Source: Desulfobacterales bacterium (GTDB taxonomy: Bacteria; Desulfobacterota; UBA8473). Taken from it: a stretch of DNA of 64,000 bases. Below are positions 11,357-31,211 of the stretch, in pieces. Both the position numbers and the translations under genes were made by a program. The first letter of the stretch is position 1; every line of letters starts with the position of its first letter. The stretch covers positions 24,511 to 88,510 of the forward strand of contig JACQWO010000092.1 of the NCBI GenBank assembly GCA_016209225.1. Direction: 5' to 3'. Under the pieces are notes generated by a model, which was not told the DNA's origin, made no database searches, and saw nothing but the letters and a program-made list of their open reading frames with translations.

Positions 11357-11374
11357 TTCGAGACCTTTGCATAA

Positions 11375-11573
11375 CCTACCGAGAGCTTTGAAGAAGTATC
11401 CCTGAGAGCGAATTGCATAGATTTTTTGGGAAACCCATCTTAGCAAGCGAAATGTAGAAAATTCACATGTTTGAGCCCGAAGGGTGAGTTTGTGAATTTT
11501 CAATGGAGCGAGCTTAGATGGGTCAAAAAATTCATGCTGAAGCGAAAAGGGGTAATTTTTCAAAGCTCTCAAT
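11375..11573 (-). mobile_element. 199-bp MITE-like element with 12-bp terminal inverted repeats GAGAGCTTTGAA (copy 1, reverse orientation)
   Basis: About 90% identical to copies at 16546-16745 and 31013-31211. The 76-aa track ORF inside it is spurious. Confidence 0.7.
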
Positions 11574-11591
11574 TCAAGGAAGGAGACAAAG

Positions 11592-12389
11592 ATGACAAAC
11601 CATCAAGACGATCTAGCTAAATCAAACAAAAAGTCTGTTATAGCCGTTTCAGGGAAAGGTGGCACAGGAAAGACGGTCATATCCACAATCATCATAAAAC
11701 ACCTCAAGAAGAGGGACATGAAGATTCTGGCCATTGACGCTGATCCGGCAACGAGCCTCCCCCCTGCATTGGGTGTCAGCATTAAAAAGACCATAGGAGA
11801 CATAAGAGAGACACTTGTTAAAGGACCGGGAAGGGCTCCAACCTCCAATCTGCCTGTGGATCTTATGCTTGAATATCAGATACGGGATATCCTGGCGGAG
11901 ATACCAAAAATCTCGATCCTGGCCATTGGTCGCCCAGAGGGGCCTGGGTGTTACTGCCTTGTCAATGACATCCTAAGACATGCCATAGAAAAGTTCTCAG
12001 GCTATTATGATGTTACGATAATCGACTGTGAAGCAGGTCTGGAGCATCTGAGCAGGAGAACAACCAGAAGTGTTGATACCATGATCATAGTGACCGATGC
12101 CACTCAGAGGGGTATCAATACGGCAAGATTGATAAAAGAGCTGGCAGAGAGTCTGGAGATAAACTTCGACAAGATATGCGTTATCCTAAACAGGGCAACG
12201 GAGGAACAGGCAAGGGTATTCAGCGAGAGTGCATCAAAGTATGGAATAGAGCTGGCCGGGATAGTACCCTATGATCAGAATATTACAGAGTACGATCTTG
12301 ACGGGAAGCCGCTGATTGACCTGCCCGATGACTCCCCTGCTGTTATCGCGGTAGGAGAGATACTTCACAAACTAGAAATCCTCGTCTAG
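11592..12389 (+). CDS. cooC: CO dehydrogenase maturation factor CooC (MinD/ParA-family Ni-insertion ATPase)
   Basis: 265 aa; deviant Walker A GKGGTGKT and conserved CxC motif (GPGCYCLVN). Confidence 0.8.
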   Translation: MTNHQDDLAKSNKKSVIAVSGKGGTGKTVISTIIIKHLKKRDMKILAIDADPATSLPPALGVSIKKTIGDIRETLVKGPGRAPTSNLPVDLMLEYQIRDILAEIPKISILAIGRPEGPGCYCLVNDILRHAIEKFSGYYDVTIIDCEAGLEHLSRRTTRSVDTMIIVTDATQRGINTARLIKELAESLEINFDKICVILNRATEEQARVFSESASKYGIELAGIVPYDQNITEYDLDGKPLIDLPDDSPAVIAVGEILHKLEILV

Positions 12390-13196
12390 CACCTTGGATC
12401 TTACTGCCCCTTTTATCCAATTCTGGGATGCCTTGAGGGACCTCTCAGGGTCTTTAAGATTTTTCCATATCTCCTTATCTTTTGGGGTCCCCATAAATGG
12501 GCTCACAGTGCTTTCCAGTGAATTGACTACCCATATCATCATTTTAATATTTTCCTTTACTTTATCCATATTTTCCCTGATGAAGTTTACAAATGGGGCA
12601 GGGCTTTTCTCTGAAGGAACTATCACCACGTGTTCAACAGTTACCACCTTTAATGCCTCCAGAATTTCAGACACAAATACAATAGATGGAAACATAAAGA
12701 GCTGGAGTTCATTGTTGTCTTTAACTGCCCTAATGGTTTTGCTGGCGCCTGGTATTCCTGGCTGAACATCCGATACCTTATATCCAGACCTGTACATCAA
12801 ATCCTTTACTGCATCTTCTGCTATTTGGGAAACCATAGGGAACCGCAAATTGGCCAGACGTTTAAATCCCCTTTCCAGTTCATCGGGCATGTACTTGTGA
12901 GTGGGCGGGGTGTAAAACACCTCTCCCAGATAGTTGAGCTGTACATGCATATCAGGAGAGAAGACAGAGAGGCGAATCTTTCCTGTTATTCCTTCAAAGA
13001 TCATCTGTTTTACGTCACCCTCCAGTAGTTTTTCCAACCCCTTTTTATCATCCTCAGTCAGACTGTCCACTTCCTGATCTATCTTCCACATCAATTCTTC
13101 AGCGGATACTGCCCTGTACTTCATAAGGTAACTCGATATCTTCCCCAAAACCTGTGGTAATAAACTCTCCATTTTAAGAATCCTCCGTTCCTCCAA
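12372..13196 (-). CDS. Hypothetical protein (TTG start); possibly the 3' part of a frameshifted larger gene
   Basis: 274 aa with no recognisable motif. Overlaps the next ORF by 76 nt in another frame. Confidence 0.45.
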   Translation of the reverse strand: MEERRILKMESLLPQVLGKISSYLMKYRAVSAEELMWKIDQEVDSLTEDDKKGLEKLLEGDVKQMIFEGITGKIRLSVFSPDMHVQLNYLGEVFYTPPTHKYMPDELERGFKRLANLRFPMVSQIAEDAVKDLMYRSGYKVSDVQPGIPGASKTIRAVKDNNELQLFMFPSIVFVSEILEALKVVTVEHVVIVPSEKSPAPFVNFIRENMDKVKENIKMMIWVVNSLESTVSPFMGTPKDKEIWKNLKDPERSLKASQNWIKGAVRSKVLDEDF

Positions 13197-13549
13197 ATTT
13201 GTCCTTTACATATTAATAGAATACCTCTGCCAAGCCCCCGTATTAAGACACAAAATCGATGGTAATAACTATCTTTCTCCTTAGAAAGGTCAAATCCTTC
13301 GACTTCTTCCCTTATCATCTTCAAAAGAACATCCCCGAGGGTTGCCTCACTTCTTATCTCAGGGGCCCTTCCCAGAAGAAGCCTAAAACCTTTTACTCCC
13401 TGGATGCTATCCTTTATTAAGGCATATGCCTGGATATTGAAAAAGGCAGTGGCGATGTCGAATTGTGTATTGGGAATCTCCTCAAGGACACTGTTAAGGA
13501 AAGTGGATAGCTTTATGTCGCTATTATCAATGATTTTCTTTGGTATCAT
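13121..13549 (-). CDS. Hypothetical protein. The N-terminal ~95 aa resemble the first strand-helix unit of a PLD-like nuclease; the C-terminal ~45 aa look like out-of-frame read-through
   Basis: QFDIATAFFNIQAYALIKDSIQGVKGFRLLLG fits the PLD-family N-terminal pattern, but no HxK motif follows. Confidence 0.3.
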   Translation of the reverse strand: MIPKKIIDNSDIKLSTFLNSVLEEIPNTQFDIATAFFNIQAYALIKDSIQGVKGFRLLLGRAPEIRSEATLGDVLLKMIREEVEGFDLSKEKDSYYHRFCVLIRGLGRGILLICKGQIWRNGGFLKWRVYYHRFWGRYRVTL

Positions 13550-13971
13550 TTAATTTTCGTAAGAAAATCCTTCGCAGTTGAAACATTTACGATGCTCTTT
13601 ATCTTGTCAGTAAAGAAATGGGAATCACCAGTCAGAAAATAGTCAGGTTTCGCGTAAAGAACAGCGGCAAGGATCGGGATATCCTTCTTATGAGTTATCA
13701 GGGATGAAGCATCTTTCAATTTATGGTTGTACTTTGAGCGCGGGATGATTGAAATATCAGTCAATGCTTTTTCTGTTTCAGCAAGAGCGATTTCAAATGT
13801 CCTTTCTTTCAGATACTTGAGTTTCTTTTTTACTATCCCCCGTAACTCATCAACGACATCCTCACTAGTCACAAGGTCTATCTCGACCAAATCAAGAATC
13901 CTGGCTTCGTTTCCGTCAAAGAATATCCCTGAGAGCAGAATGTTTGTATCTACAAAGACCTTGTACCTCAT
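13546..13971 (-). CDS. PIN-domain toxin (VapC-like) of a type II TA pair
   Basis: 141 aa; MRYKVFVDTNILL with later acidic residues; 4-nt overlap with the upstream antitoxin gene. Confidence 0.8.
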   Translation of the reverse strand: MRYKVFVDTNILLSGIFFDGNEARILDLVEIDLVTSEDVVDELRGIVKKKLKYLKERTFEIALAETEKALTDISIIPRSKYNHKLKDASSLITHKKDIPILAAVLYAKPDYFLTGDSHFFTDKIKSIVNVSTAKDFLTKIK

Positions 13972-14183
13972 TTGCGCATCTTCTCAAGCTCTTTCAGCAT
14001 CTGAGCCTCTGTTATGTCCTCCTTTTTCATCAGCCATTTCAGGAATGACCTGCTCTTCCGGGCATAAGCCTTTTTGAGCGCTGATACGACAGCCTCCGAT
14101 GCGTCAGAGAATACGCCGAGCTTTATCTCCTCGTTAATGTTACGGTAGATGTCATCCGGAATCTGTGCTACGATTTTAGGCAT
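13968..14183 (-). CDS. Antitoxin partner of the PIN toxin (small DNA-binding protein); start at internal Met
   Basis: MPKIVAQIPDDIYRNINEEIKLGVFSDASEAVVSALKKAY...; the track ORF extends to 14243 in the same frame. Confidence 0.55.
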   Translation of the reverse strand: MPKIVAQIPDDIYRNINEEIKLGVFSDASEAVVSALKKAYARKSRSFLKWLMKKEDITEAQMLKELEKMRK

Positions 14184-14427
14184 TTCACACCTCCATGATA
14201 TTTGAATAAACCAATGATAACATAAAGTTTTCTGTTTGCACATCTTAAACTCTTATTGTCTTGTCTGCCTTATGTTTCCGCTTTCATCAAGGTACAGATA
14301 AAGCATTTATCTCCTATGTCTTGCTTGCATGTTTCTCATAAATATCTATCTCTCAACAAGAACACATCGCCTCTTGAATTATAGATATCGCATATTTTGT
14401 TTGCGCTGTCTGTTGCGTAGGCATCAT

Positions 14428-15489
14428 TTAACTCAACACCTTGAAATTCCCCTGTCCCATAGGCGGTCTCATGCAGTAATAAACAACCATGTCAAAACTA
14501 AGAAGTTTTTTTATGTCTTCGAGTAGATGTTTAAAGCTATCGTTCATATATAAAATCATGTGATAGTTGGAAACTGGATGCCATTTCTCTTTTCTTTTAA
14601 TTGCAATAACACCAGCAACCTTCCGGGAAAAATCAGAGTCTCTAAATAATCCATCATTCTCTCTACACCAAAAATCCCTACTTTCAACAACTGATTCATA
14701 CTCTGTTCCGAAAACTGCATCACAGATGTCTATATCTTCTTTGTTATCGGCTTCCATAACTATTAGGTTGATATTTTGACGGTCTACTTCCCATTTAAAC
14801 GCCCCTGCTGCATTAAGTAGGCTTTCTTTTATCTGATCTCTGGCCAATCCAGTTAAGTTTACCATCTCCAAATCACCTGCATAACCAAGAGTCAGTTCAG
14901 ACAATTCTGCATTTACGGCTGACCGCAATCCAATTTTGGCTCTTTGATTGCTCTTACTTGTAAATAAAAAGCTTTTATCATCAATCGCCGACGTTGTTTT
15001 CTTTTTCATGAAGTCTATAAGCTCTGGCAGGCAGTCTTCTTTAAAATCATCGGACAACTTGCAACTGAAAAATTTGCCAACCTTAATTTCCTTCGCTTTC
15101 TCTATAATTTTCTGTATTAACTTGTCTTGCCTGTTCTCTCTTTCCAGCTTTTGCAAGTCTTTTATTTGTATCCAAAAGGTGATGTCGCCTATCTGAACTT
15201 TAAAATCCGGAGGGGACTGTAAGTCATCAGGCTCATAATTTATTGGGATTTGAGCACAGTGATGAGAAATCAACATAACAGCAAAATTATGCTCAGCAAT
15301 CGTTTCAAATATTTTTGTATGCTTACGGGCGTCAACAAGCCTTTTATTAAGTTTGCCCAATCCTCTTTGTTCAAGAAGCGCCATATTTACAGCAAGTTTT
15401 CTCACATCTTCATCTGAAGCTTCATATCTGGTAGCGTTAAATATTCGTCTTGCAATATTTACATAACCTTCCGTATGTTGCACCCTCAC
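14428..15489 (-). CDS. Hypothetical 353-aa protein with a PD-(D/E)xK-like motif; possible orphaned restriction endonuclease
   Basis: GTG start overlaps by GTGA the stop of the methyltransferase 3' remnant upstream. ETIAEHNF...PDFKVQIGDITFWIQIK fits E...PD...(Q)xK. Confidence 0.45.
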   Translation of the reverse strand: MRVQHTEGYVNIARRIFNATRYEASDEDVRKLAVNMALLEQRGLGKLNKRLVDARKHTKIFETIAEHNFAVMLISHHCAQIPINYEPDDLQSPPDFKVQIGDITFWIQIKDLQKLERENRQDKLIQKIIEKAKEIKVGKFFSCKLSDDFKEDCLPELIDFMKKKTTSAIDDKSFLFTSKSNQRAKIGLRSAVNAELSELTLGYAGDLEMVNLTGLARDQIKESLLNAAGAFKWEVDRQNINLIVMEADNKEDIDICDAVFGTEYESVVESRDFWCRENDGLFRDSDFSRKVAGVIAIKRKEKWHPVSNYHMILYMNDSFKHLLEDIKKLLSFDMVVYYCMRPPMGQGNFKVLS

Positions 15490-15650
15490 ACACTCCTTGC
15501 TTTCTCAAGGCGGTTCTTGACGAGTTAGCAGACGGACCAATAGACTTCATTTCTTTCGGCGTCGGTCAAGCCGAGAACGTCAAAGACTATATCATCAAGG
15601 GCCTTGCGGTCAGGAAGGGGATTGGGCGTTTGTTCGAGGATGGGACGGGT
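15490..15650 (-). pseudogene. 3' remnant (about 45 codons) of a DNA methyltransferase gene, copy 1, with an internal TAA
   Basis: Minus-strand translation RPILEQTPNPLPDRKALDDIVFDVLGLTDAERNEVYWSVC*LVKNRLEKARSV. The ...D.IVFD.LGLTxxERxEV tail is typical of N6-adenine DNA MTase C-termini. Confidence 0.5.
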
Positions 15651-15666
15651 AAAGTTGATGCTATGT

Positions 15667-15882
15667 TTATACCAGATCCTTAAGTTCATCAATCGTAATG
15701 CCTGCTTTTTTTATGATATTGTTAAGAGTTCCTTTCTTGATTTCCTTATGAAACGGAACAACTACCGATATGTTTTTCTCAAGATTGTGCATAAAGATAT
15801 GGCTTCCTCGCTGATGGTCAACGACAAAACCCTTCCGTCTCAATGCCTTGACAACATCTTTACCGGAGAATGTTTTACTCAA
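15667..15882 (-). CDS. hicA: HicA toxin (mRNA interferase)
   Basis: 71 aa; [27 protein letters not shown] is the canonical HicA motif. Confidence 0.85.
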
Positions 15883-16094
15883 AGAACCATCTCCACTTCT
15901 TTCAAAATTACATTGGGTCTTGATTTTATCTGATTCAGTTTTTCAAGCCCTTCAAGATAGGCATGTATAGCTTCTTTCGCATTCTCAATTGCTTCCTCTT
16001 CAGTTTCCCCTTGAGTAAAACAGCCATCAAGGGCGGGAACCGTCACATTAAAACCGCCTTCTTCAGCAGGCTCTAATATTATGTTGAATTTCAT
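15879..16094 (-). CDS. hicB: HicB antitoxin (UPF0150 family)
   Basis: 71 aa; [43 protein letters not shown]; 4-nt overlap with hicA. Confidence 0.85.
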
Positions 16095-16191
16095 AAAATA
16101 AACCTCCTTTCTGATTCATTATAACATGCATCTCTAATTACGAATTAAAAATTACAGGATTCCTAATTCGTAATTCCTAATTTTTAATTAA

Positions 16192-16345
16192 ATTGATTTT
16201 GCCTTCTCAAGCCTATTCTTCACCAACTCACAAACGGCCCAGTAGACTTCGTTCCGTTCAGATTCTGTCAAGCCGAGAACGTCAAATACTATATCATCAA
16301 GGGCCTTGCGGTCAGAAAGGGGGTTTGGGCGAATAAACAACAGGG
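16192..16345 (-). pseudogene. 3' remnant of a DNA methyltransferase gene, copy 2 (intact frame: ...RPNPLSDRKALDDIVFDVLGLTESERNEVYWAVCELVKNRLEKAKSI*)
   Basis: About 80% nucleotide identity to the copy at 15490-15650; no gene body upstream. Confidence 0.5.
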
Positions 16346-16545
16346 AATCAACCTATAGACAAACTAACACCTTTCAACCTATCAGTAAAGTATTTTTTAC
16401 TCTGCCCTTTCAGCTATCCAGCCCTTGAATTTTCAGCGGTTACGTCTTATATTAGATATATTATTGATTGCGTACCTAACTTTCAAAAGAGAGAAAATTC
16501 CATAAATGTTATTGACAACATCCTGCTATTTAAATTATCTATATA

Positions 16546-16745
16546 TAGAGAGCTTTGAAAAATTACCCCTTTTCGCTTCAGCATACATTTTTTGACCCAT
16601 CTAAGCTCGCTTCATTGAAAATTCACAAACTCACCCTTCGGGCTCAAGCATGTGAATTTTCTACATTACGCTCGCTAAGTTGGGTTCCCCAAAAAATCTA
16701 TGAATTCGCTCTCAGAGGTACTTCTTCAAAGCTCTCGGTAGGTTA
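16546..16745 (+). mobile_element. 199-bp GAGAGCTTTGAA-TIR MITE-like element, copy 2
   Basis: Lies directly upstream of the polyferredoxin-hdrA operon. The track ORF 16555-16836 is spurious. Confidence 0.7.
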
Positions 16746-16810
16746 TGATAAAGGTCTCAGAGAGTGCTGGTTTTTTCCCTGTTTAATAGAGCATTACTCC
16801 TGGAGATATT

Positions 16811-17656
16811 ATGATTGCTTTGAATACAAAAACTGAAACAGATGAAAAGACAGAGATTAAGCTGAAGCTGTATGTGGATGAGGTCTCCCTGGTTCTGAAT
16901 AAATTGGTTTGTATTAAATGCGATATATGTAAAACGGTTTGTCCCAAGGATGCTATCTCGGTGATACGGGATGAAAAAGAGGTCAGGATTGATATTGATG
17001 AGGGTAAATGTGTTCTGTGCGAGGTCTGCTCTCACTTCTGTCCGGTATCAGCGATTACTTTAACCCACAATAATGTTCCAAAGAGTATTCTTCTGGACAA
17101 CCAGGGGGTACTTTCATTTCCAAAGAGGATAGAGATAGATACCAGCAGATGTCCCAGTCACTGCTCTAAAAACCCTGAGGGAGAACACCGGTGGTGTCGC
17201 AAAAACGATGAAGTAATTGATAATACTTACGAAGACTGTCCCAAGTTCTGTTTTTCATGCGTTGAAAATTGTCCGAGAGACCTGATAGGGGTGGAAGGTG
17301 ATTCGGTAAAGCCCAATGAAGCCAGATGCCTTGGCTGTCCCCATTGCCAGGACAGTTGTGAATATGGTTCAATAAGCTTAACCCCTGTATTTTCTGGAGA
17401 GATAGGCATAGATAGCAAGCTCTGCCCTGAAGAATGTACCAGGTGCATAGACCTATGCCCGACAAAAGCGATTAGCAGAGAGGGGAAAGAAGTTGTTGTC
17501 AATGACAGATATTGCTCATTCTGTGGTGCATGTGTTAATATATGTGATAAAGAGGCAATCGACCTGAAAAGAACAGATGTGAAAGCGGAAGAGGGAGAGT
17601 TTTCGGCTGTCTGGTCAGATGCAGTGGACAAGTTAGTTGCTTCGCAACAAACTTGA
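16811..17656 (+). CDS. Polyferredoxin (multiple 4Fe-4S dicluster domains)
   Basis: 281 aa with about seven CxxCxxCxxxCP motifs. Confidence 0.8.
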   Translation: MIALNTKTETDEKTEIKLKLYVDEVSLVLNKLVCIKCDICKTVCPKDAISVIRDEKEVRIDIDEGKCVLCEVCSHFCPVSAITLTHNNVPKSILLDNQGVLSFPKRIEIDTSRCPSHCSKNPEGEHRWCRKNDEVIDNTYEDCPKFCFSCVENCPRDLIGVEGDSVKPNEARCLGCPHCQDSCEYGSISLTPVFSGEIGIDSKLCPEECTRCIDLCPTKAISREGKEVVVNDRYCSFCGACVNICDKEAIDLKRTDVKAEEGEFSAVWSDAVDKLVASQQT

Positions 17657-17661
17657 GAATT

Positions 17662-17720
17662 CAGTAGTCAGTAGTCAGAATGGAAATAATTTTCTGCTGG
17701 ATTCTGACTCCTGACTACTG
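17662..17720. repeat. 20-bp-stem inverted repeat built of AGTCAGT units between the polyferredoxin and hdrA genes
   Basis: cagtagtcagtagtcagaat...attctgactcctgactactg. Confidence 0.5.
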
Positions 17721-17737
17721 ACTTAATAGGTGATTCT

Positions 17738-20077: not shown

Positions 20078-20080
20078 AGG

Positions 20081-21736: not shown

Positions 21737-21783
21737 GGAGATTATTAATTATTTGTAATGATTTCGGTGATATATGTTATATT

Positions 21784-21813
21784 GGGAATTATAAGCTGAA
21801 TAGACGAAATAAA
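21784..21813. repeat. Direct repeat copy 1 (GGGAATTATAAGCTGAATAGACGAAATAAA; extended match from 21771)
   Basis: Repeated at 22791-22820 with one mismatch. The pair brackets the HEPN/MNT cassette. Confidence 0.5.
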
Positions 21814-21826
21814 CACCAACCTATCG

Positions 21827-22135
21827 ATGGAAAGCACAACAATGAAAACTTTTAATGAAATCAAGAAGAGATTGTCCGAACAAAAACCAATTCTCCTAAA
21901 AAAATATAAAGTTAACCGCTTAGGCGTTTTTGGTTCGTATGTTCGAGGAGATCAACATCAAGGCAGTGATCTTGATGTGTTGATAGATTATGAAGATGCT
22001 CCAAGCCTCATTACTTTGATAGAATTGGAATACTACCTGAGTGAAATCGTTGGGGTAAAAGTGGACTTGGTAACTAATAAAGGTATAAAACCTCAACTCA
22101 AGGACTCTATTATCAAAGAGGTGGTTTACGTATGA
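21827..22135 (+). CDS. Nucleotidyltransferase (MNT) antitoxin of a HEPN/MNT pair
   Basis: 102 aa; LGVFGSYVRGDQHQGSDLDVLID is the minimal nucleotidyltransferase GS...DxD motif. Confidence 0.85.
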   Translation: MESTTMKTFNEIKKRLSEQKPILLKKYKVNRLGVFGSYVRGDQHQGSDLDVLIDYEDAPSLITLIELEYYLSEIVGVKVDLVTNKGIKPQLKDSIIKEVVYV

Positions 22136-22494
22136 CTCAGAGGACTGTTTTACATTTTCTTGAAGATATCTTGAAGGCAACCGATGCTATTTACGAGTTT
22201 GTGCTCGATATGAATTATGAGGCTTTCGCAAACGATGAGAAAACAATCCGTGCCGTAGAGAGAGAATTTGAGATTATTGGAGAAGCTGTTAAAAAAATTC
22301 CTGACTCGTTTACTAAAAAATATCCTGATATACCTTGGCGATCGGTTGCAGGGATGAAAGATCGTTTAACTCATCACTACTGGGAAACAGAAGCCGACAT
22401 TCTATGGAAAACGATTAAAGAATCTGTGCCACAATTAAAAGCGATCATCAAAAAAATGATCGAGAATGAGAGCATGGAAAAAAGATCCATGTAA
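22132..22494 (+). CDS. HEPN-domain toxin (HepT/DUF86)
   Basis: 120 aa; RLTHHYW fits the Rx4-6H HEPN motif; 4-nt overlap with the MNT gene. Confidence 0.85.
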   Translation: MTQRTVLHFLEDILKATDAIYEFVLDMNYEAFANDEKTIRAVEREFEIIGEAVKKIPDSFTKKYPDIPWRSVAGMKDRLTHHYWETEADILWKTIKESVPQLKAIIKKMIENESMEKRSM

Positions 22495-22527
22495 CGGGGC
22501 ATGTAACGGGCATGGCCATGTAACGGG
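22488..22527. repeat. Three tandem copies of CATGTAACGGGG starting at the HEPN stop codon
   Basis: catgtaacgggg catgtaacggg catggc catgtaacgggg. Confidence 0.5.
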
Positions 22528-22696
22528 GTCGGGCCACAGCAAGTATCGGATATTGGAACGAATAATTCAGAACTGTCCCCCTGAAATGGGCATATAATGT
22601 TCTTTTCGGGGCTGAAAAAGAGGATATAGTCTCCGAAAACACATATTCCTGGAACTGTAAACCATAAGAATCAACTACATACCTTGGCCCGACCCC
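22525..22696 (+). ncRNA. Candidate structured RNA bounded by a perfect 12-nt inverted repeat (GGGGTCGGGCCA ... TGGCCCGACCCC); possible retron msr/msd (a2/a1-like)
   Basis: The 12-nt inverted repeat flanks about 150 nt, the geometry of the Ec86 a1/a2 pair. It lies upstream of the PRTase gene. Confidence 0.25.
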
Positions 22697-22790
22697 AGGA
22701 ACCACCTTGCAATAAATGTCACAACAGGGATTACTAACAAGGGTTATTCAAGCACTTGAAGAAAACAGAATCCAATATATGATAACAGGT

Positions 22791-22820
22791 GGGAATTATA
22801 AGCTGAATAGACAAAATAAA
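22791..22820. repeat. Direct repeat copy 2 (GGGAATTATAAGCTGAATAGACAAAATAAA)
   Basis: See 21784-21813. Confidence 0.5.
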
Positions 22821-22916
22821 TTGTTATGGCATAGAGATCTAAATTAACCCTTCGGGTTGTGGTGTTATATAGAAACTTTAGAATAACTTGTTAGGGTAAA
22901 AATATAAGGAGGGATC

Positions 22917-24671
22917 ATGGCAAGTACGGTCGAAAAACTTCTTAGAGATAATGGATACTATTTATCTGACGGTCACTATAAGCTAGTTAGTGGGCGACAT
23001 TCGAATGCATATGTTCAGGCAAGAATATCTCTTATGGATCCAAAAATAAATAGTGAATTTCGCACTATATCTACAGAGTTAATTCGTGACCAGAATGTCT
23101 CTGCAGTAGCAGGATTTACAGTAGGAGGCCTACTACTCGCTGATGAAATCGCAAAATATACAAAACTTCCATTGGTAGTCGGGTATAAACCAATGAACGA
23201 TGTAGAATGGCTTGGTGCAGAAAACATTCGAGTTAATTCCAAAGTTCTTTTAGTTGATGATGTTTTAACAACGGCTTCACAGATAAGAACTGCTATACGT
23301 AGTCTTGAAGATATTAGTAATATCAGTGAACTCTTAATATTAGTCGCCGTTGACCGAAGCAATGGAGACTTGAAGATTAAATTTAGGGATGATGAAGTTA
23401 GGATATTGGACTGTATCAAAATTCCTTTATCATCATTTAATCCGAGTGAATGTCCTTCATGCTTTGCTGGGATACCTACAACTGACTTATCTAATCCTGA
23501 AAAAGACGTTGTATCTGTCGTTCTCACGCAACCTCGAGACAAATCTGACTTTATTTTAAAAGGTTATGAAAAAGTATATAAAATGCAACGAGACCAAAAG
23601 TCATTAGATGAAATGAAGGCGTGGAAATTATGGATGCCTGTACTTTTAGCAGGATTACCTATGGCAAGAGCAAAAGAAGATAGTAGTTTGATAAAGTTTG
23701 TAAGCTATTTAACGACTATAGCAGGAGAGCATAATATCAAACCGAGAGTACTCAGTGAGATAATAGGTCAGCTAATAAGGTTATCGTCAATACGAGTTGA
23801 ATCTAGGGCCATTGGCTGTTCTATGATTGTTGGCAATATAGATGAAATCGGTAATATCCTTGAATCAAGGGCGAGAGTTAGAATGCCAATAAATATAAAC
23901 CATGAAAAGCTAACAGAGCTTGTACCACACTTCGATGCACTGTTAGAAACAAATTATGCTATCGTGTTAAGCAATGATGGAAAAGCAATAGACTTCCGAA
24001 GACTCAATTTTAGTAGATCAAGACGCTATATAGAAGGCATAGAGTTAGTACGTTTTGTTACTGCAAATTCTCGGTCCATCGGTTTTGTTCTCAGGCGAGG
24101 AAGGAGTGCTATTGCTGTATATAATAATGGACGACTTGAGGCTATTGGTGAATTATCTGAAAGAAGTGGGCTTTGGGAATTTTCTAGGCCAATGGATAGG
24201 ATAGAAGAAATTCAATCAATATTAAAAAGAAATGTTCAAGAGTTACTTTTAACTTTGGTAGAAGCGTCAAGAGAACTAGTTGCTAGAGGGCATGGTGCAC
24301 TATTTGTGGTTGGTAACGTAGACTCTTTAAACCATACAGTGCCCAAAATTGAAATTGAACCTCAGAATATTAAAGACATGACAATAGAAGATTTAGTTGA
24401 ATTAGCAAAACTTGACGGTGCAGTATTGATAACTGAAGACGGCAGATTACTTCAAGCCACTGTCATATTGAAGAATCGAGATGAAGGGACCTTTGCAGGT
24501 CAACAAGCTGGTACTACGCATGGTGGCAGTCGGAAAGAAACGGCAATAAGAACAAGCATAGAATGCCCAAATTGCGCGGTGATTAATATTTCTCAAAATG
24601 GTGCTATTGAAATATATGTTCACGGAGAGTCATGGCCAATTTCTGAATCATTTTCAGGATTGTCACGATGA
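22917..24671 (+). CDS. Phosphoribosyltransferase-domain protein fused to two degenerate diadenylate-cyclase (DAC/DisA_N)-like domains; putative retron/defence effector
   Basis: 584 aa; PRTase PRPP loop NSKVLLVDDVLTTASQI. The C-terminus ELVARGHGALFVVGN...LDGAVLITEDGRLLQATVIL...GTTHGGSRKETAIRTSIECPNCAVINISQNGAIEIYVHGE aligns with CdaA but lacks RHR. An earlier degenerate copy is present. Candidate -35/-10 at 22857-22884 and a strong RBS. Confidence 0.7.
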   Translation: MASTVEKLLRDNGYYLSDGHYKLVSGRHSNAYVQARISLMDPKINSEFRTISTELIRDQNVSAVAGFTVGGLLLADEIAKYTKLPLVVGYKPMNDVEWLGAENIRVNSKVLLVDDVLTTASQIRTAIRSLEDISNISELLILVAVDRSNGDLKIKFRDDEVRILDCIKIPLSSFNPSECPSCFAGIPTTDLSNPEKDVVSVVLTQPRDKSDFILKGYEKVYKMQRDQKSLDEMKAWKLWMPVLLAGLPMARAKEDSSLIKFVSYLTTIAGEHNIKPRVLSEIIGQLIRLSSIRVESRAIGCSMIVGNIDEIGNILESRARVRMPININHEKLTELVPHFDALLETNYAIVLSNDGKAIDFRRLNFSRSRRYIEGIELVRFVTANSRSIGFVLRRGRSAIAVYNNGRLEAIGELSERSGLWEFSRPMDRIEEIQSILKRNVQELLLTLVEASRELVARGHGALFVVGNVDSLNHTVPKIEIEPQNIKDMTIEDLVELAKLDGAVLITEDGRLLQATVILKNRDEGTFAGQQAGTTHGGSRKETAIRTSIECPNCAVINISQNGAIEIYVHGESWPISESFSGLSR

Positions 24672-24691
24672 TAAAAACCCTAACCCATAAG

Positions 24692-24762
24692 GTTTGATCT
24701 GACCGGGCGACGTGAATAGAGTATAAAAAGCTGAGCTTTCGCTCCCGGTCAGAATCAAACCA
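24692..24762 (+). ncRNA. Long hairpin (17-bp stem GGTTTGATCTGACCGGG / CCCGGTCAGAATCAAACC, 36-nt loop) in the 269-bp gap upstream of the NDT-like and RT genes; second msd-like candidate
   Basis: Imperfect only by one bulged A. It is followed by a 10-bp inverted repeat ATGCGTAACC / GGTTACGCAT at 24789-24798 / 24868-24877, and has no T-run after it. Confidence 0.3.
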
Positions 24763-24940
24763 TTGTTCAACAACAGCATGCACATGAATGCGTAACCGCA
24801 AGGTGCTTTTTGGCTTTTGATTATTTTACTTTTGCAAAGCATCTTTGAGCATGTTTACAAGATACAGGTTACGCATCAGTGATGCTCGCGTTAGACATAT
24901 AAATAATTAAAGATCATGGCTGGTGTAACATCAAGAAATT

Positions 24941-25507
24941 ATGAGTGATATCAAAGAATCAATAACAAGATTTGGCAATGATTTAGAGGATATTTTCTCA
25001 GAACGTAGAGCTGTTGTTTTTCTCTGCGGCCCGTCTTCCAAAGACCTAGATCATCCTGGTGCACAATTACGCGTCGACCTTGAGGAAGCATTAAAGCAAG
25101 AAGGCTTCGAGGTGATTCTAGGAGAGGATGATGGGCTTGAAAGCCTCAGGCATAAATATAGTAACTATGCACATGAAAATGAATTGATGTTTATTCAAAA
25201 ACACTGCAATGCAGTGATCCTTATCGCTTCTAGTGTTGGTGCCTACTGTGAATTGGGTTTATTTTCTTACAAAAAAGTTCATGACTTAGAAAGCATGACG
25301 GATTTTATTTTAATAATTAGCAATGAATATGAAAATGTACAATCTTTTTTAATCGAGGGACCAGCTGCTGCTATCGATGATTTTGGGAAAGTTTTTTACG
25401 GAGACTTATCTAATTTTGATTATAGCAATATTATTAAAAGGTTGAGGCGGAGGCGCTCTGTTTATTTTACAAGTCACAAAGGTCGTCCACCTTCATTTAA
25501 TGAATAA
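24941..25507 (+). CDS. Nucleoside 2-deoxyribosyltransferase-like (NDT-like) protein, the effector class of type II retrons
   Basis: 188 aa; AVVFLCGP (compare IYLAGP) and AVILIASSVGAYCELGLF (compare DSGTAFELGYA); 2-nt gap to the RT gene. Confidence 0.65.
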   Translation: MSDIKESITRFGNDLEDIFSERRAVVFLCGPSSKDLDHPGAQLRVDLEEALKQEGFEVILGEDDGLESLRHKYSNYAHENELMFIQKHCNAVILIASSVGAYCELGLFSYKKVHDLESMTDFILIISNEYENVQSFLIEGPAAAIDDFGKVFYGDLSNFDYSNIIKRLRRRRSVYFTSHKGRPPSFNE

Positions 25508-25509
25508 CG

Positions 25510-26991
25510 ATGCGAGTAACATTAAACGAAAATATACTACTCTGGGCGGCAGCAGTTTTACAACCAGCTTCTGCGGCTGATGTTAGAAGTTTTATTGCAT
25601 CAATTTATCCAGAAATTTCACTACTCCCCAATATTGGAGAAATCGAAAATATTTTTTCAACTTGGCGAGAAGAAGGGTATTTACAGAGAGTTCATGGTAA
25701 ATCAAGATTGTATTCAGCAACTTACAAAACAAATTTAAAGCTATCAGTAAAGCTAAGACGAAGCAGGGACAAGTCCCGTCTTTTCTTGCTTAAATCTACA
25801 AGAGCTGCTAATGTGAATGTATCGGGGGTACGAGAACAGGATTCGGTTGGCGATTCGCCATCCACGGAAGGTAGCATAATTTTACAAGAGGGTGCGTGGC
25901 CAATAAAACCGGCCGCTGCTCCTCGGGTTCCTCGGACCACCGGCCGATTTTATTGGCCACGGATCTCAAAGCAACTAAGTATTGAAGTTGGCCCTAGTTT
26001 TTCGTCCCCCGATACATTTTTTAACTATTATTCATTCCCTTCTATCAAAACCATTCATGAGGCTAGTCATAAGCCTGCTTCAGAAAAAGATCTAAGTATA
26101 ACAGATATCTCTTTAGCCATTGGAATAAGTCCGCGGCTCATTACATCCTTTATTCATGCCCCTGAAAACCATTATAGGCAATTTAAAATTGGTAAACGAG
26201 GTGGTGGAGAGCGTGTTATAAATTCGCCTAGAACATTTTTAAAGGTGGTTCAATACTGGATATTAGATTATCTGCTTCATTCTTTGCCTTGTCATCCGAA
26301 CTGTCATTCCTACCAAAAAGGAAAGTCTATTTTGTCTAATTCTCTTCCTCATGTTGGGCAAAAATATTTAGCAAACATTGATATTTCTAATTATTTCCCA
26401 TCAATTAATGAAAAAATGGTTTTCTCTCTTTTAAGAGACAATAATTTTGGAGAACAGTTATCAAAAGCCGTCGCCCGTATTGTCACACTTGAGAATGGTT
26501 TGCCCCAGGGCGCACCAACTAGCCCAATTATTTCCAATGCGTTTCTATGTAATTTTGATGAAATTATGACTCAGCGAGCTTTGTCTTTTAATCTTGTATA
26601 TACAAGATATGCAGATGACATGACTATAAGCGGGGAAAATAAAGAGAATATAATTAGTTTGATAAAAAATTTGTCTGCTAATCTCAAGGATATGGGCCTC
26701 TCCATTAATGAGAAAAAAACAAGGATCGCGAGTCAAGGAGGACAGCAAAAAGTGACAGGCATAGTTGTAAACGAAGTTTCGCAACCACCTCGTACTTATA
26801 GAAGGAACATTAGATCAATGTTTCACCATGCAGAGAGAAACCCAGAATTATTTGCAGACAATATTAAAGTTCTGAAAGGATATATAAGTTATTTGCAAAG
26901 TTTTCCGAATATGCAAGGGAAAAAAGAAATATTCAGATATAAAAATGTTTGTAAAACAATTGAAAAGAATTTTGTCCAACAATCGCATTAG
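25510..26991 (+). CDS. Retron-type reverse transcriptase with an N-terminal extension of about 190 aa
   Basis: 493 aa; FKIGKRGGGERVINSP, LPQGAPTSP, YTRYADDMTISG (YADD), and the retron-specific QKVTGIVVN (VTG). Confidence 0.85.
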   Translation: MRVTLNENILLWAAAVLQPASAADVRSFIASIYPEISLLPNIGEIENIFSTWREEGYLQRVHGKSRLYSATYKTNLKLSVKLRRSRDKSRLFLLKSTRAANVNVSGVREQDSVGDSPSTEGSIILQEGAWPIKPAAAPRVPRTTGRFYWPRISKQLSIEVGPSFSSPDTFFNYYSFPSIKTIHEASHKPASEKDLSITDISLAIGISPRLITSFIHAPENHYRQFKIGKRGGGERVINSPRTFLKVVQYWILDYLLHSLPCHPNCHSYQKGKSILSNSLPHVGQKYLANIDISNYFPSINEKMVFSLLRDNNFGEQLSKAVARIVTLENGLPQGAPTSPIISNAFLCNFDEIMTQRALSFNLVYTRYADDMTISGENKENIISLIKNLSANLKDMGLSINEKKTRIASQGGQQKVTGIVVNEVSQPPRTYRRNIRSMFHHAERNPELFADNIKVLKGYISYLQSFPNMQGKKEIFRYKNVCKTIEKNFVQQSH

Positions 26992-27036
26992 CTCATATAA
27001 ATAAGCATAAGCAATTATTGAAAGGAGGAATATATT

Positions 27037-27240
27037 ATGGATAAGGCTCTTTTAGAAAAAGCATTAGAAATGTCACCGAATGAAAGGGTAGTACTTGCTG
27101 AGTTAATCCTAGCTAGCATCGATCATGAAGAAGATGAAATTCGCGAATTATGGCTTTCTGAAATAAAAGACCGTATAAAAGCAGTCAATGAAGGTAAAGC
27201 AAAATTATTAGATTTTGAAAGGCTATACAATGAAAGTTAG
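27037..27240 (+). CDS. Putative addiction-module antitoxin component (orphan, no toxin gene adjacent)
   Basis: 67 aa; MSPNERVVLAELILASID...LSEIKDRI fits the small alpha-helical antitoxin family usually paired with RelE/ParE-like toxins. Confidence 0.55.
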   Translation: MDKALLEKALEMSPNERVVLAELILASIDHEEDEIRELWLSEIKDRIKAVNEGKAKLLDFERLYNES

Positions 27241-27308
27241 TATTGGATAGTGTTTAAATACTCGGTTCACATTTATGTTTTTTGGACATCCTCAAATAAG
27301 GTAATTCT

Positions 27309-27770
27309 ATGGCAAAGCTATCCATGTACCAACTGTACCATTATCTCCCGAAAACCGATTGTGAGAAGTGCGGCTTTTCATGTATGGGATTCGCTAATCG
27401 CCTTATTTCCAGAGATGTTAGACCGGAGGATTGCCCTTTTCTATTGGAACCGGAGTACTCAGAGTCCCTGACTGAACTGAACAGGCTTCTGGGCCCTGAG
27501 GTTGAGAAAGAGATCACAGGGCTTATAATAGACCAGGAAAAGTGCAATGGATGCGGTATATGTGTTACTGTATGTGAGGTAAATATGGAAAAGAGTCAAG
27601 AGGTAGGAGCGGGGAGAGGTCCTGGCTTTTCAGATGAGGTTGTGTTACGAATAGATAATGGGAAGATTAAGCTGGTTGACCCCCAATCTTGCAGACGGGC
27701 AAACCCCTCTTCCCATATCTGCAGGGCATGTGCGGAACTATGCCCCACAAAAGCTATTAGCCTTGTGTGA
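27309..27770 (+). CDS. Small Fe-S protein: N-terminal CFeSP/CdhE-like 4Fe-4S motif plus ferredoxin-like cluster motifs
   Basis: 153 aa; LPKTDCEKCGFSCMGFANRL...CPF resembles the corrinoid Fe-S protein large-subunit N-terminus; then CNGCGICVTVC and CRACAELCP. Confidence 0.6.
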   Translation: MAKLSMYQLYHYLPKTDCEKCGFSCMGFANRLISRDVRPEDCPFLLEPEYSESLTELNRLLGPEVEKEITGLIIDQEKCNGCGICVTVCEVNMEKSQEVGAGRGPGFSDEVVLRIDNGKIKLVDPQSCRRANPSSHICRACAELCPTKAISLV

Positions 27771-27772
27771 TT

Positions 27773-27895
27773 GTAACTATTCAGGTAGGCACAAAGGCAC
27801 AGAGCACCAAAGGCACAAAGTTAAGAAAAAACAACGAAACGACCCTGCTCTGCTTTGTGCCTATGTGCCTTTGCCACTTTGTGCCTGAGTAGTAC
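27773..27895. repeat. GTAACTAYTCAGG-TIR MITE-like hairpin element, copy 2, inserted between the Fe-S gene stop and fwdB
   Basis: Near-identical arms to 4783-4918; right end cctgagtag-tac has a 1-nt deletion. Confidence 0.6.
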
Positions 27896-27915
27896 TAAAT
27901 AGACGGAGGTAAAAT

Positions 27916-29202
27916 TTGTCGGAAATACTGTATGAATCTGTAGTATGCCCCTCCTGTGGCTGTCTGTGTGATGACATAGATGTAGTCGTTGAGGAGAATC
28001 GGGTAAAGAGCATAAGAAATGTATGCGAATGGGGCATAAGCAAGTTTCTTTTTACCAAGAAGTTCACTCCAAATGTAAAAAGGGGACGGGTAGAAAAGCC
28101 GATGATAAGGGAAAAAACTCTGGTAGAGACCGACTATGAGGCAGCTATCTCCAGGGCAGTGGATATCTTAAAGGGTTCAAAAAAACCCTTGATTTATGGA
28201 CTGACAAACTCAGGGTATAACGCCCAAAAAATCGCACTAAGTATTGCAAGAAGGTTAAAGGGATTGTTTGAACCAAGGGGGGCAGCCCTCTTGAGCTCAT
28301 ATTATGCCGCAATGGGTGATTCAAATTTCTACGTAGCACCTCTGGAGGAGATAAGGAACAATGCCGACCTTATAATATATTGGGGATGCAACCCTATACA
28401 TTCTACCCCAAGACACCTGGCCCGATATTCTGTATATCCAAGGGGGAGATGCAAGGAGAGGGGAAGCCAGGACAGGGTGGTTTTTACTGTGGATGTTGCC
28501 GAAAATGAGATGGGAAAGCTGTCCCGCCGGTTTCTTCAAGTGGAACGGGGCACTGATTTTCTGGTAATGGAAACTATGATGAAATTGCTGAGGGAGGAAA
28601 ACGCTGAAGACTATAAAGGGGATATCGCTACTATAGAAAATATGGTCAGGCAGATGACAAAGGTGTCCTATGGTGCGATATTCTTCGGCATGGGATTGTC
28701 AGCTAAGGATAATGCTGCGAAAAACATTGAGAATCTGATGGCGCTGGTTAAGGAGTTAAACAGGAAAACCAGGTTTGTGATTCTTCCTCTTTATGATGAT
28801 TTCAATACAAGCGGGGTGATACAGCTTCTTATCAGGGAGTTGAAAAGCCCAATGCCGGCGGATTTTTCCGGTGATCACGTCGCCAAAAACAGTAAATACT
28901 CCTTGTTGGAAAACCTCCATGAGATAGACGCTGCATTAGTCGTTGGAGATGACCCATTTTGGTCTCTTCCCTCTGAAAAGTCCGATTTGTTGAAAAAAAT
29001 ACCTATGGTTCTCATCGATCCTTACTGGACAAGGACAACCAACAAGGCCCAGGTGGTTTTCCCAACAGCCGTTACGGGTATAGAAGCAGAGGGGATTGCT
29101 TACAGGATGGATGGTCTGCCCCTCAAATTGAAAAAGGTCCTGGAGAGCGAATACCCATCGGACGAGAGTATATTGGGAGACATATATCAGCGTTTGCAAT
29201 AA
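27916..29202 (+). CDS. fwdB: Formylmethanofuran dehydrogenase subunit B-like (FwdB/FmdB family)
   Basis: 428 aa; N-terminal VVCPSCGCLCDDIDVVVEENRV...CEWGISKF matches the FwdB Fe-S motif; length fits. Confidence 0.75.
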   Translation: MSEILYESVVCPSCGCLCDDIDVVVEENRVKSIRNVCEWGISKFLFTKKFTPNVKRGRVEKPMIREKTLVETDYEAAISRAVDILKGSKKPLIYGLTNSGYNAQKIALSIARRLKGLFEPRGAALLSSYYAAMGDSNFYVAPLEEIRNNADLIIYWGCNPIHSTPRHLARYSVYPRGRCKERGSQDRVVFTVDVAENEMGKLSRRFLQVERGTDFLVMETMMKLLREENAEDYKGDIATIENMVRQMTKVSYGAIFFGMGLSAKDNAAKNIENLMALVKELNRKTRFVILPLYDDFNTSGVIQLLIRELKSPMPADFSGDHVAKNSKYSLLENLHEIDAALVVGDDPFWSLPSEKSDLLKKIPMVLIDPYWTRTTNKAQVVFPTAVTGIEAEGIAYRMDGLPLKLKKVLESEYPSDESILGDIYQRLQ

Positions 29203-29212
29203 AGGAATTCCC

Positions 29213-30613
29213 ATGAAGATAAAGATAGAAGGCGGAAGGCTATACGATCTCAGGAACAACCTGGATGGAGAAGAGAGGGACATCTTCATAGAGGACGGCA
29301 TAATAGTAGAAGGGTTCTCCAGTGCCGACAGGACTATTGATGCCTCTGGAAAAGCCATTATGGCAGGAGGCATAGATGTACACAGTCATATAGCTACCTA
29401 TGGTTTAAACCTGATAAGAGGGACGAACCGCTTTTATTCCCCCAGCGAGATTGGTCATATATACGCTAAAATGGGCTACACCCACGTAAACGAACCCTTC
29501 ATGACCCAGGTCACAGCCAACTACGTTCATCATGAACTGTCCTCAATACCTATATTGGACACCTCCGCCTTTTTGGTGCTGAACCTCAGGGATGTTGAGG
29601 GCAAGATCAAGTCTGCTAAGCATCTTGAAGAGGTTGAGAAGATTATACCCATCATTATTGCCGGCACCAAGGCTATCGGGTTAAAGATATATGAACCCTT
29701 TGTGAAATATGCTGAGAGAAAGTATATTCTGAGAAATGTAACTGCGAAGAAGGTCCTGAGTTTCTTTTCAGGAATGAGCAGGGAAAGTATCCCAAGGATA
29801 ATCATGCATACTTCCCCTGAACTCTTTGGTGAAGAGATTGAAAATCCCGGAGGCTTCCACTTCTCCCATGTTGGGTCAGCCATAGGCAATGAAGAAGCCT
29901 ACCAGAAGGTCTTGAGCTACCTTAACGCAGGGGCAACTATAGATTTAGGGCTATTCGATCTTGAGCAAAACTTAAGGATATCAAATCCTAAACAGACCGT
30001 TGGCGAGGTTTTCGGGAGGGTAGATATGGGGCTTTCAGAGGATATTGTGTTCTCGAAAGGAAAAGTCTCTGGGAGTGAAGCCCCATTTTTTGCCTTTAAA
30101 CTTGCCCTTAGCCAGCCCTCTAATCATATATCTTTTTCCACGGACAGCCCTGCCAATGCCTCATTTGAGGCGTACCCCAAGATATTTTCATGGTTGATGA
30201 AGGCAGAGAATAGGGCTAACCTGTTCGATAAAGAGCTTCCGGAGTTTGAGTACTCCCTCCTGGATATTGCAAGGATTACCAGGCATAATCCTGCATATAT
30301 CCTTGGTTTAAAAAATAAAGGGCATTTAGGGGCAGGGGCAGAAGCAGATATAGCCATCTATGATATTAACGAAGAGACAAAACCGTCTGAACTGGAGGCT
30401 CGCTTTAAAGACTGCGCCTATCTGATAAAGAGTGGCAGTATTGTTGTGGAGGATCATCAGATGGTAAATGACCAGGTAGAAAAGAAGACCTATTACAGAG
30501 GCGTGGAGCCCCTTGATTATGAACCTGCAAAGATTATGACAAGCTACAGCACCTTCCGATTCGAGAACTTTATAGTAGACGAGGTGTTTACCGCTGAAGA
30601 GGTTAAGATTTAA
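29213..30613 (+). CDS. fwdA: Formylmethanofuran dehydrogenase subunit A-like amidohydrolase (FwdA/FhcA family)
   Basis: 466 aa; GGRLYDLRNNLDGEERDIFIEDGIIVE...IDASGKAIMAGGIDVHSHI. Confidence 0.75.
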   Translation: MKIKIEGGRLYDLRNNLDGEERDIFIEDGIIVEGFSSADRTIDASGKAIMAGGIDVHSHIATYGLNLIRGTNRFYSPSEIGHIYAKMGYTHVNEPFMTQVTANYVHHELSSIPILDTSAFLVLNLRDVEGKIKSAKHLEEVEKIIPIIIAGTKAIGLKIYEPFVKYAERKYILRNVTAKKVLSFFSGMSRESIPRIIMHTSPELFGEEIENPGGFHFSHVGSAIGNEEAYQKVLSYLNAGATIDLGLFDLEQNLRISNPKQTVGEVFGRVDMGLSEDIVFSKGKVSGSEAPFFAFKLALSQPSNHISFSTDSPANASFEAYPKIFSWLMKAENRANLFDKELPEFEYSLLDIARITRHNPAYILGLKNKGHLGAGAEADIAIYDINEETKPSELEARFKDCAYLIKSGSIVVEDHQMVNDQVEKKTYYRGVEPLDYEPAKIMTSYSTFRFENFIVDEVFTAEEVKI

Positions 30614-31012
30614 GCATTCAAATTCAAAGTCTTTTTCCAAACCCTGTCAACTGGATTCTATGAACTGTTACGATTTTTCTTGAAATTTATTTGTATATAG
30701 AGTAAAAGTATACAATAGTGTGCTCATCCTCATACTCTAATTGAACCCGAGATTACCTATACTGTACCCAATATCTATAATCTTGCCATGAGAGTGACCT
30801 AGTAATAGTTTTAGGTTCAGATTCACTATTGTATCCCAATTAGGATGCCGAAGATTCCAGATACCTTCCGCAATTTCTATTCTTACATGAGCACGGCAAG
30901 AGAGTAGAACGATCAAAACCACTTTATAACTTCAATAAAGTAGAATTCCCGAGATATTTTTAATTATTCGACGCTTGAGACTAAAGTTTGTCTACTTTAC
31001 TTCTTAACAAAA

Positions 31013-31211
31013 TTGAGAGCTTTGAAAAAGTACCCCTTTTCGCTTCAGCATACATTTTTTGACCCATCTAAGCTCGCTTCATTGAAAATTCACAAACTCA
31101 CCCTTCGGGCTCAAATATGTGAATTTTCTACATTCCGCTCTCTAAGAAGGGTTCCCCAAAAAATCTATACAATTCGCTCTCAGGGAGCTTCTTCAAAGCT
31201 CTCGGTAGGTT
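31013..31211 (+). mobile_element. 199-bp GAGAGCTTTGAA-TIR MITE-like element, copy 3, about 130 bp upstream of cdhA
   Basis: The track ORF 31013-31276 is spurious. Confidence 0.7.

Follow-up and report, generated by a model that had tools for sequence, protein, structure and literature searches.

A probable miniature inverted-repeat transposable element family beside three redox and C1-type gene clusters of a Desulfobacterales bacterium

Three copies of a repeat of about 200 bp stand beside three redox/C1-type genes in a 64,000-nucleotide stretch of a Desulfobacterales genome (contig JACQWO010000092.1, positions 24,511 to 88,510; hereafter the window), one next to a cooC-like gene, one before the polyferredoxin–hdrA operon, and one before a cdhA-like gene. 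The locus thereby raises the question of whether the repeat is a mobile element that settled there or a regulatory module that ties the three operons together. It is very probably an ordinary non-autonomous transposable element of the miniature inverted-repeat kind (MITE), mobilised in trans, in a Thermodesulfobacteriota/Desulfobacteria-type bacterium. The identification as a MITE had already been made in an earlier note on this DNA, and it is now strengthened by 5-bp target duplications, an empty site at copy 3, a multi-copy intergenic distribution, and a non-coding interior.

The three full copies reported before are real, with 92–94% pairwise identity over ~211 nt, and copy 1 indeed runs opposite to copies 2 and 3. 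The claim of perfect 12-bp inverted termini also holds, as the left end GAGAGCTTTGAA and the right-hand repeat TTCAAAGCTCTC match at 12 of 12 positions and are present in all three copies. The unit length of 199 bp did not stand, although the repeat itself did: the form delimited by these inner termini measures 189–190 bp, and the window copies are 21–22 bp longer. Alignment of the three window copies with their flanks revealed that, past the right-hand TTCAAAGCTCTC, the similarity runs for 21–22 bp via GGTAGGTTRTG into a second, imperfect terminal repeat, CAAAGGTCTC. When ~60 full-length copies were aligned with their flanks, the left end was fixed at GAGAGCTTTGAA, beginning with GAGAGC, and the right end was found to be of two kinds, either the inner TTCAAAGCTCTC (189-bp form) or the outer CAAAGGTCTC (209–211-bp form). 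For the outer repeat, GAGACCTTTG, 9 of its 10 positions match, and the spacer between the inner and outer right repeats has a second variant, TCAAAACAWAAATAGTTTTK. The similarity between the two arms reaches ~23 nt and then extends, less perfectly, over the whole element. Besides the full copies, the 53-bp mini derivative described before was recovered as an internal deletion with both termini kept, and the partial copy formerly given as 42691–42730 proved to be a left-end fragment that ends at 42722. The copies and fragments in the window are as follows.

11360–11570, minus strand: MITE copy 1, 211 bp, long form, inverted; perfect 5-bp duplication AATTC at 11355–11359 and 11571–11575.
16548–16758, plus strand: MITE copy 2, 211 bp; inner right end at 16736; flanks ATATA and AGAGA match at 3 of 5 positions.
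31015–31224, plus strand: MITE copy 3, 210 bp; inner right end at 31203.
8047–8099, minus strand: internal-deletion derivative, 53 bp; both termini of the 189-bp form retained, interior gone; no recognisable target duplication.
42690/42691–42722, plus strand: left-end fragment of about 32–33 bp, GAGAGCTTTGCAAAAGCCCCCCTTTCCGCTTC; abuts a vapC (PIN) gene cut off after ~30 codons.
4729–4776, minus strand: left-end fragment absent from the earlier note, 48 bp, 90% identical to element positions 2–49; adjoins a copy of a second repeat family.

The evidence for transposition comes from the target duplications and from an empty site. In a first set of 51 copies, the 5-bp flanks matched at all five positions in 13 and at four of five in 11, against chance rates of 0.1% and 3%, respectively. 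After the genome and metagenome copies had been pooled and deduplicated by site, 22 of 56 sites matched at four or more of the five positions (12 perfectly and 10 at four of five), the maximum among the shuffles being 7 (n = 2000). The perfect duplications include GAATT, AATAT, AAATG, AAACT, AGTAA, and TAAAT. They are found at the inner right end of the 189-bp form (contig L090, AGAAG; contig L024, GCATC) as well as at the outer right end of the 209–211-bp form (window copy 1, GAATT in the element orientation; L072, L081, L097, and others), and both right ends are therefore in use; in L037, the duplication AAACT lies at the inner right end, but that copy is 215 bp long. The site of copy 3 is empty in contig L103, whose CdhA-like protein is 95% identical to that of the window and whose upstream region has ~91% nucleotide identity. 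Exactly 216 nt are missing from L103, corresponding to a 211-nt element (31013–31223) plus one copy of CAAAA; by this comparison, CAAAA is duplicated around copy 3 (31008–31012 and 31224–31228), and a single CAAAA is retained in L103.

The element recurs far beyond chance in the genomes of relatives and in metagenome loci. A scan of one genome per species with an 18-nt core string returned 88 stretches, ~75 of them in a handful of related metagenome-assembled genomes (MAGs), namely CG_4_8_14_3_um_filter_43_13, SO_2017_SWC_16, SURF_34, X2_MetaBAT.32, and MEGAHIT-group-1.416; two MAGs contribute at least 20 loci apiece, and at least 3 more MAGs supply others. BLASTN of the element identified ~100 copies or fragments, many cut by contig ends, in the loci fetched from relatives, and a metagenome scan with a terminal 22-mer added 68 more loci. 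By blastn, none of the few scan matches from unrelated taxa resembled the element; they are probably chance occurrences of the 18-mer. Of 67 copies, 64 lie outside long open reading frames (ORFs), and both orientations are seen. The family is a MITE dispersed in the intergenic DNA of related Desulfobacteria/Thermodesulfobacteriota MAGs, which represent uncultivated bacteria of the sulfate-reducer type, and of groundwater metagenomes. An archaeal host of the Methanosarcinales type, which the cdhA, hdrA, and cooC labels might suggest, was ruled out by the Deltaproteobacteria/Desulfobacteria/Thermodesulfobacteriota relatives and the RND systems: the nearest relatives of the window's CdhA-like protein (95–78% identity) belong to Thermodesulfobacteriota MAGs, among named archaeal homologues the nearest (Methanophagales-type) have only ~41% identity, and genes for RND efflux pumps with outer-membrane factors are present in the window. 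This identifies the host as a Gram-negative Desulfobacteria/Thermodesulfobacteriota-type bacterium and not a methanogen. Two Logan contigs with an identical cooC-like gene, L001 (SRR12113406) and L002 (SRR12113404), stop 28–29 nt inside the MITE, which indicates that the repeat breaks assemblies of the window's organism.

Prokaryotic MITEs are 50–800 bp long, with terminal inverted repeats of at least 10–15 bp and target duplications of 2–10 bp; ~90% of them are intergenic, and more than half of prokaryotic genomes contain them (PMC11602168). The present element, with 189–190 and 209–211-bp forms and mini derivatives of 53–85 bp, falls within this size range, and the terminal repeats, target duplication, non-coding nature, many intergenic copies, and precise empty site were all found. 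Like prokaryotic MITEs at large, as covered in reviews (PMC10969869, PMC3184786, PMC11602168), it is small, carries terminal inverted repeats and short target duplications but no transposase, is dispersed in mostly intergenic copies, and shows deletion derivatives, nested insertions, and a long hairpin. Several observations weigh against this identification. About half of the copies have no clean duplication, including window copies 2 and 3 (3 of 5 positions at the canonical ends), and the comparison with L103 sets the junction of copy 3 off from the canonical ends, by 2 nt to the left and by a shortfall of 1 nt. Several insertions are common to closely related MAGs, and the activity of the element may be old. 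Also, searches of the window, of ~1.2 Mb of related loci, and of plasmid, phage, and viral collections, the source genome lying outside their range, uncovered no transposase or autonomous element that has these termini. A full-text literature search with the terminal and core strings returned irrelevant matches only and no description of the family; the element forms a new family within a class that is thoroughly well known.

Other small elements share the termini of the MITE while having unrelated interiors: a 121-bp element at L035:3132–3252 (duplication TAAAT), a 132-bp element at L084:3896–4027 (duplication TTTTT), and a mini-element of ~85 bp in L034 (duplication TGGAA). Some copies have swapped interior modules or small nested inserts, such as the 22-nt hairpin insert in L059, L067, and L098. 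At orthologous sites whose flanks are 94–98% identical, the interiors diverge more, for example to 70–80% identity, by module swaps and insertions, which argues against purifying selection on the interior. These comparisons show the termini to be the functional part of the element and the interior to be its cargo.

A mechanism may be proposed on this basis. A transposase encoded elsewhere would bind the terminal repeats GAGA(G/C)CTTTGAA and insert the element by a 5-bp staggered cut, giving rise to the observed A/T-leaning target duplications of 5 bp. Either of the two nested terminal repeats at the right end is usable, as the positions of the duplications show, and the 189-bp and 209–211-bp forms are thereby generated; the same termini also bound the small elements with other interiors. 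Intergenic copies would survive because selection removes insertions in genes, and the three window copies probably adjoin redox/C1-type genes simply because such genes abound in this stretch.

The three insertion sites differ from one another. All copies had been placed directly upstream of operons, which does not hold for copy 1: it lies between the stop codon (11354–11356) of an amidohydrolase gene (10598–11356) and the ribosome-binding site of the cooC-like gene (ATG at 11592), and its AATTC duplication overlaps the TAA at which the amidohydrolase gene stops. Removal of copy 1 in silico leaves a gap of 19 nt before the cooC-like ATG, including the ribosome-binding site AAGGAAGGAG, and copy 1 is therefore located inside an operon. 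Copy 2 begins 7–8 nt downstream of a promoter-like block, TTGACA...TATCTA, and is separated by 52 nt from the polyferredoxin ATG (16811) downstream. In the closest relative at this site, L041 (93% and 91% amino acid identity for polyferredoxin and HdrA, respectively), the upstream block ...ttattgacaa...ctatttaa(a)ttatctatat is held in common with the window and is followed by a different repeat of ~125 bp, after which the window sequence resumes at cctggagatattATG. A similar TTGACA-containing block, tattgacaatcagtcctatttaattatttaa, occurs in L104, a more distant syntenic relative. Since the block is conserved in L041 and L104 without the element, it is likely a promoter older than and independent of the insertion of copy 2, which would then form the 5′ end of the transcript. 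Copy 3 is located 115 nt upstream of the cdhA-like ATG (31340); in L103, where it is absent, the remainder of the 500-nt upstream region is conserved. The former gene labels cooC and cdhA are retained here at the level of the family and not as exact identities, because the cooC-like gene matches only general CbiA/ParA-type ATPase models and the CdhA-like protein scores 538 bits against a curated cut-off of 781.

The surroundings of copy 2 contain further repeats. The ~125-bp repeat at this site in L041 reads tgtaaccgttcacgg...ccgtaaactgtgaacgg, and the presence of different repeats in the same leader in the window and in L041 marks this leader as an insertion hotspot. In positions 1–1330 and 1450–1590 of L041, a putative transposase ORF, of the IS3 type to judge by its reading, is interrupted twice by small repeats, one of which belongs to a family with the MITE's internal core TTTTTGACCCATCTAAGCTC but with different termini (AGTTCATCCTGAAAAATTYCC...). 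In the window, a 130-nt direct repeat is located upstream of copy 2 (15497–15626 and 16199–16328, 82% identity, 702 nt apart) and seems to take in portions of two small minus-strand ORFs; no family assignments exist in that region.

It is conceivable that the MITE copies also act as RNA hairpins in the operon transcripts and modulate mRNA cleavage or stability, in the way in which RNase III acts on Correia and RNase E on ERIC hairpins (PMC10969869); such a role, which would be compatible with a transposable origin, appears unlikely from the present analysis. The whole element forms an imperfect hairpin that is very stable on both strands (minimum free energy −64.7 kcal/mol for the plus strand and −84.2 kcal/mol for the minus strand; z-scores, −4.8 and −7.5, respectively), but this fold follows automatically from the long inverted repeats. 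If transcribed, the element would fold as a hairpin of ~190 nt, between cistrons in the case of copy 1 and probably in the 5′ leader in those of copies 2 and 3; the position of copy 1 within an operon, the start of copy 2 just past the conserved promoter-like block, and the many other copies in short gaps between co-directional genes are all in favor of a hairpin role. Among the paired positions, six compensatory double substitutions were counted against four non-compensatory ones in 30 distinct copies, which were at least 90% alike and were sampled with a bias from the search string. Covariation was set aside as evidence of function, since the copies are too alike; it is suggestive only, and is expected for hairpin-forming transposons. 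On the other side, the interiors are swapped or interrupted at orthologous sites, both orientations occur, and no Rfam family was detected at gathering thresholds over the whole window; the sole result of a permissive Rfam scan of copy 2 was a miRNA-precursor hairpin model, whose 19.6 bits fall short of its threshold of 94. The ~190-nt hairpin in the transcripts of the three operons could be an RNase substrate as an incidental effect and may in this way alter mRNA processing or stability, with nothing that points to a selected regulatory role.

The absence of a transposase gene from the window, as stated previously, was confirmed among the 30 window ORFs scanned, and no match turned up in plasmid, phage, or viral collections. 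Several candidates for an autonomous partner were examined and rejected. Solo terminal repeats in the fetched loci belonged to other short MITE families or were chance matches, and the matches to the left end only were all mosaic or mini MITEs. A terminal-repeat spacing of 1353 nt that recurs in three metagenome contigs comprises a 37-nt MITE remnant, a 430-aa membrane-protein-like ORF, and a full MITE, with no transposase; the multi-copy ORFs among the loci were orthologues, the one candidate checked being an M48 peptidase. The combination of these termini, 5-bp duplications, and nested double right ends matches no insertion-sequence family that could be identified. The family may accordingly be imagined as being mobilised by an undescribed or atypical transposase of these uncultivated bacteria and, separately, some of its operon-leader copies as having been co-opted as RNA-processing hairpins for redox-enzyme operons, a proposal that we regard as improbable compared with an ordinary MITE.

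The earlier note had further suggested that the element supplies a shared promoter or regulator-binding site to functionally related operons. This was not borne out, as copy 1 is intercistronic, copy 3 is absent in L103, and the copies have no common σ70 site; that the element has been recruited as a module co-regulating the cooC-like, polyferredoxin–hdrA, and cdhA-like operons is very unlikely. Some features do fit this idea: each of the three copies stands 22–115 nt away from the start codon of a redox/C1-type gene, and MITEs such as Correia elements can carry promoters (PMC10969869). Furthermore, the right end of the element faces a gene start in 33 cases versus a gene end in 15, and the left end shows the opposite tendency (20 versus 29), a weak orientation bias at most; in the gaps between co-directional genes, the two orientations are found 17 versus 9 times, which is unconvincing as a bias. 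However, copy 1 has the opposite orientation and entered a 19-nt intercistronic gap, copy 3 is missing in a near-identical strain with an otherwise conserved leader, and the TTGACA block at the site of copy 2 is kept in two relatives that have no element there. Consensus scans, which covered the σ70 class only, detected no σ70-like or intrinsic-terminator-like site common to the three copies, and the counts of promoter and terminator sites were not above the shuffled expectation, the exception being four sites near copy 2 that the copies do not share. Orthologous sites show no conservation of the interior, and unrelated housekeeping genes adjoin other copies, which are located in the gap that separates glmU from glmS, upstream of a DUF2065 gene and queA, close to an M48 peptidase gene, and in numerous other settings. 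In many cases, the reading frame upstream terminates within or at the left terminal repeat, which holds a TGA at positions 9–11; the element is therefore tolerated immediately behind stop codons.

Comparison with known small elements likewise places the repeat among the MITEs. It resembles the TIMEs, which are miniature relatives derived from Tn3-family transposons, in being non-autonomous and in having 5-bp A/T-rich duplications, and the TIMEs are of similar size, ~200–260 bp, with duplications such as AAATT and AATAT (PMC4133298). Its own duplications (among them GAATT, AATAT, TAAAT, and AAATG) are 5 bp long, as compared with the A/T-rich duplications of 5 or 6 bp that characterize TIMEs, and both kinds of element yield mosaic derivatives with only the ends in common. 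The TIMEs are defined, however, by 38-bp inverted repeats homologous to the ends of Tn3-family transposons (PMC4133298). The ends of the present element, GAGAGCTTTGAAAAAGTACCCC..., gave no BLAST match to plasmid records, blastn being too insensitive for a 38-bp repeat, and no Tn3-type transposase was found near the element. The ends of the Tn3 family typically start with GGGG, whereas those of the element start with GAGAGC. The element is not filed here under the TIMEs or the Tn3 family in spite of the similar 5-bp, A/T-leaning duplications.

The Correia elements, which are 100–155 bp long, have a TA duplication, and are known only from Neisseria, are comparable in that they are hairpin-forming MITEs lying just upstream of or between genes. 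They are co-transcribed with their neighbors, RNase III cleaves their hairpin, and promoters are present in some subtypes (PMC10969869). The present element differs from them in its 5-bp duplication and in having neither a sequence relationship to them nor a promoter consensus, there being no σ70 −35/−10 pair at a fixed position. The ERIC (IRU) elements of enterobacteria are also imperfect palindromes that lie in transcribed DNA between genes, and internal insertions at fixed positions likewise give them variants of different size, but they belong to a different sequence family in a different phylum; they are not known to have clear target duplications or demonstrated mobility. A palindrome of the REP/REPIN type, spread by an RAYT (IS200/IS605-like) transposase, would account for the palindromic, intergenic, and multi-copy nature of the repeat and for the lack of a DDE transposase partner, yet it is a highly improbable explanation: 5-bp target duplications, which are not expected of REP/REPIN elements, flank the copies, the unit is 190–211 bp long with defined terminal repeats instead of a GC-rich stem-loop of 20–40 nt, and no RAYT-like gene was present among the ORFs scanned. 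Finally, the ~75-aa ORF inside each copy, though open in many copies and annotated by gene callers, is almost certainly not a real small protein gene and can be dismissed, as before, as an artefact of the repeat, since its substitutions at codon positions 1/2/3 (79/46/53) show no third-position excess, its peptide has no Pfam domain, the ORF crosses the terminal repeats and the target duplication, and a peptide search retrieved only ten similar "proteins", all called inside other element copies (several from Deltaproteobacteria MAGs) and varying in starts, stops, and fusions.

Several other features of the window deserve description. A second MITE-like family is present at 4783–4915 and 27773–27893, with near-identical inverted arms of ~47 nt, ACTATTCAGGTAGGCACAAAGGCACAGAGCACCAAAGGCACAAA ... 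CTTTGTGCCTATGTGCCTTTGCCACTTTGTGCCTGAGTAGT, and a variable center of 35–45 nt; one copy abuts the MITE fragment at 4729–4776, and the other is located between genes for an FeS protein and a molybdopterin oxidoreductase. The vapBC-type pair at 42687–43054 consists of an intact AbrB-like antitoxin ORF (42854–43054, minus strand) and a PIN toxin ORF (42687–42809, minus strand) that ends after ~30 native codons, at the start of the 33-bp MITE fragment, which points to an insertion into vapC and a subsequent deletion. The cdhA-like gene (31340–33847) encodes a divergent protein of the CdhA/Prismane family, whose homologues in Thermodesulfobacteriota MAGs (L101 and L104) occur as tandem paralogues beside radical-SAM and HGD-D (2-hydroxyacyl-CoA dehydratase-like) genes and, in L101, an acyl-CoA dehydrogenase gene; the role of the protein may not be that of a classical acetyl-CoA decarbonylase/synthase. 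A block of ~5.5 kb (21827–26991) separates the 551-aa gene that follows hdrA from the FeS-protein gene, the two being adjacent in the syntenic L104, and comprises the following genes.

21827–22494: MNT/HepT toxin–antitoxin pair.
22917–24671: phosphoribosyltransferase (PRTase) and DisA-type cyclase (DAC) protein.
24941–25507: 188-aa protein of unknown function.
25510–26991: reverse transcriptase.

This block has the appearance of a defence island that entered the gene cluster by insertion. A 31-nt direct repeat (21783–21813 and 22790–22820) brackets the MNT/HepT pair.

The MITE family has practical consequences for the genomics of these bacteria: it breaks short-read assemblies, seeds spurious calls of "hypothetical proteins" of 75–150 aa in public databases, and yields chimeric gene models such as a DUF2065 fusion. 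With its true ends and 5-bp duplication known, annotators can mask the element, and insertion polymorphisms like that of copy 3 are usable as strain markers in these groundwater lineages. Rather than revealing a new regulatory system, the three window copies show that energy-metabolism operons can accommodate hairpin insertions of ~200 nt in their leaders and between their cistrons.

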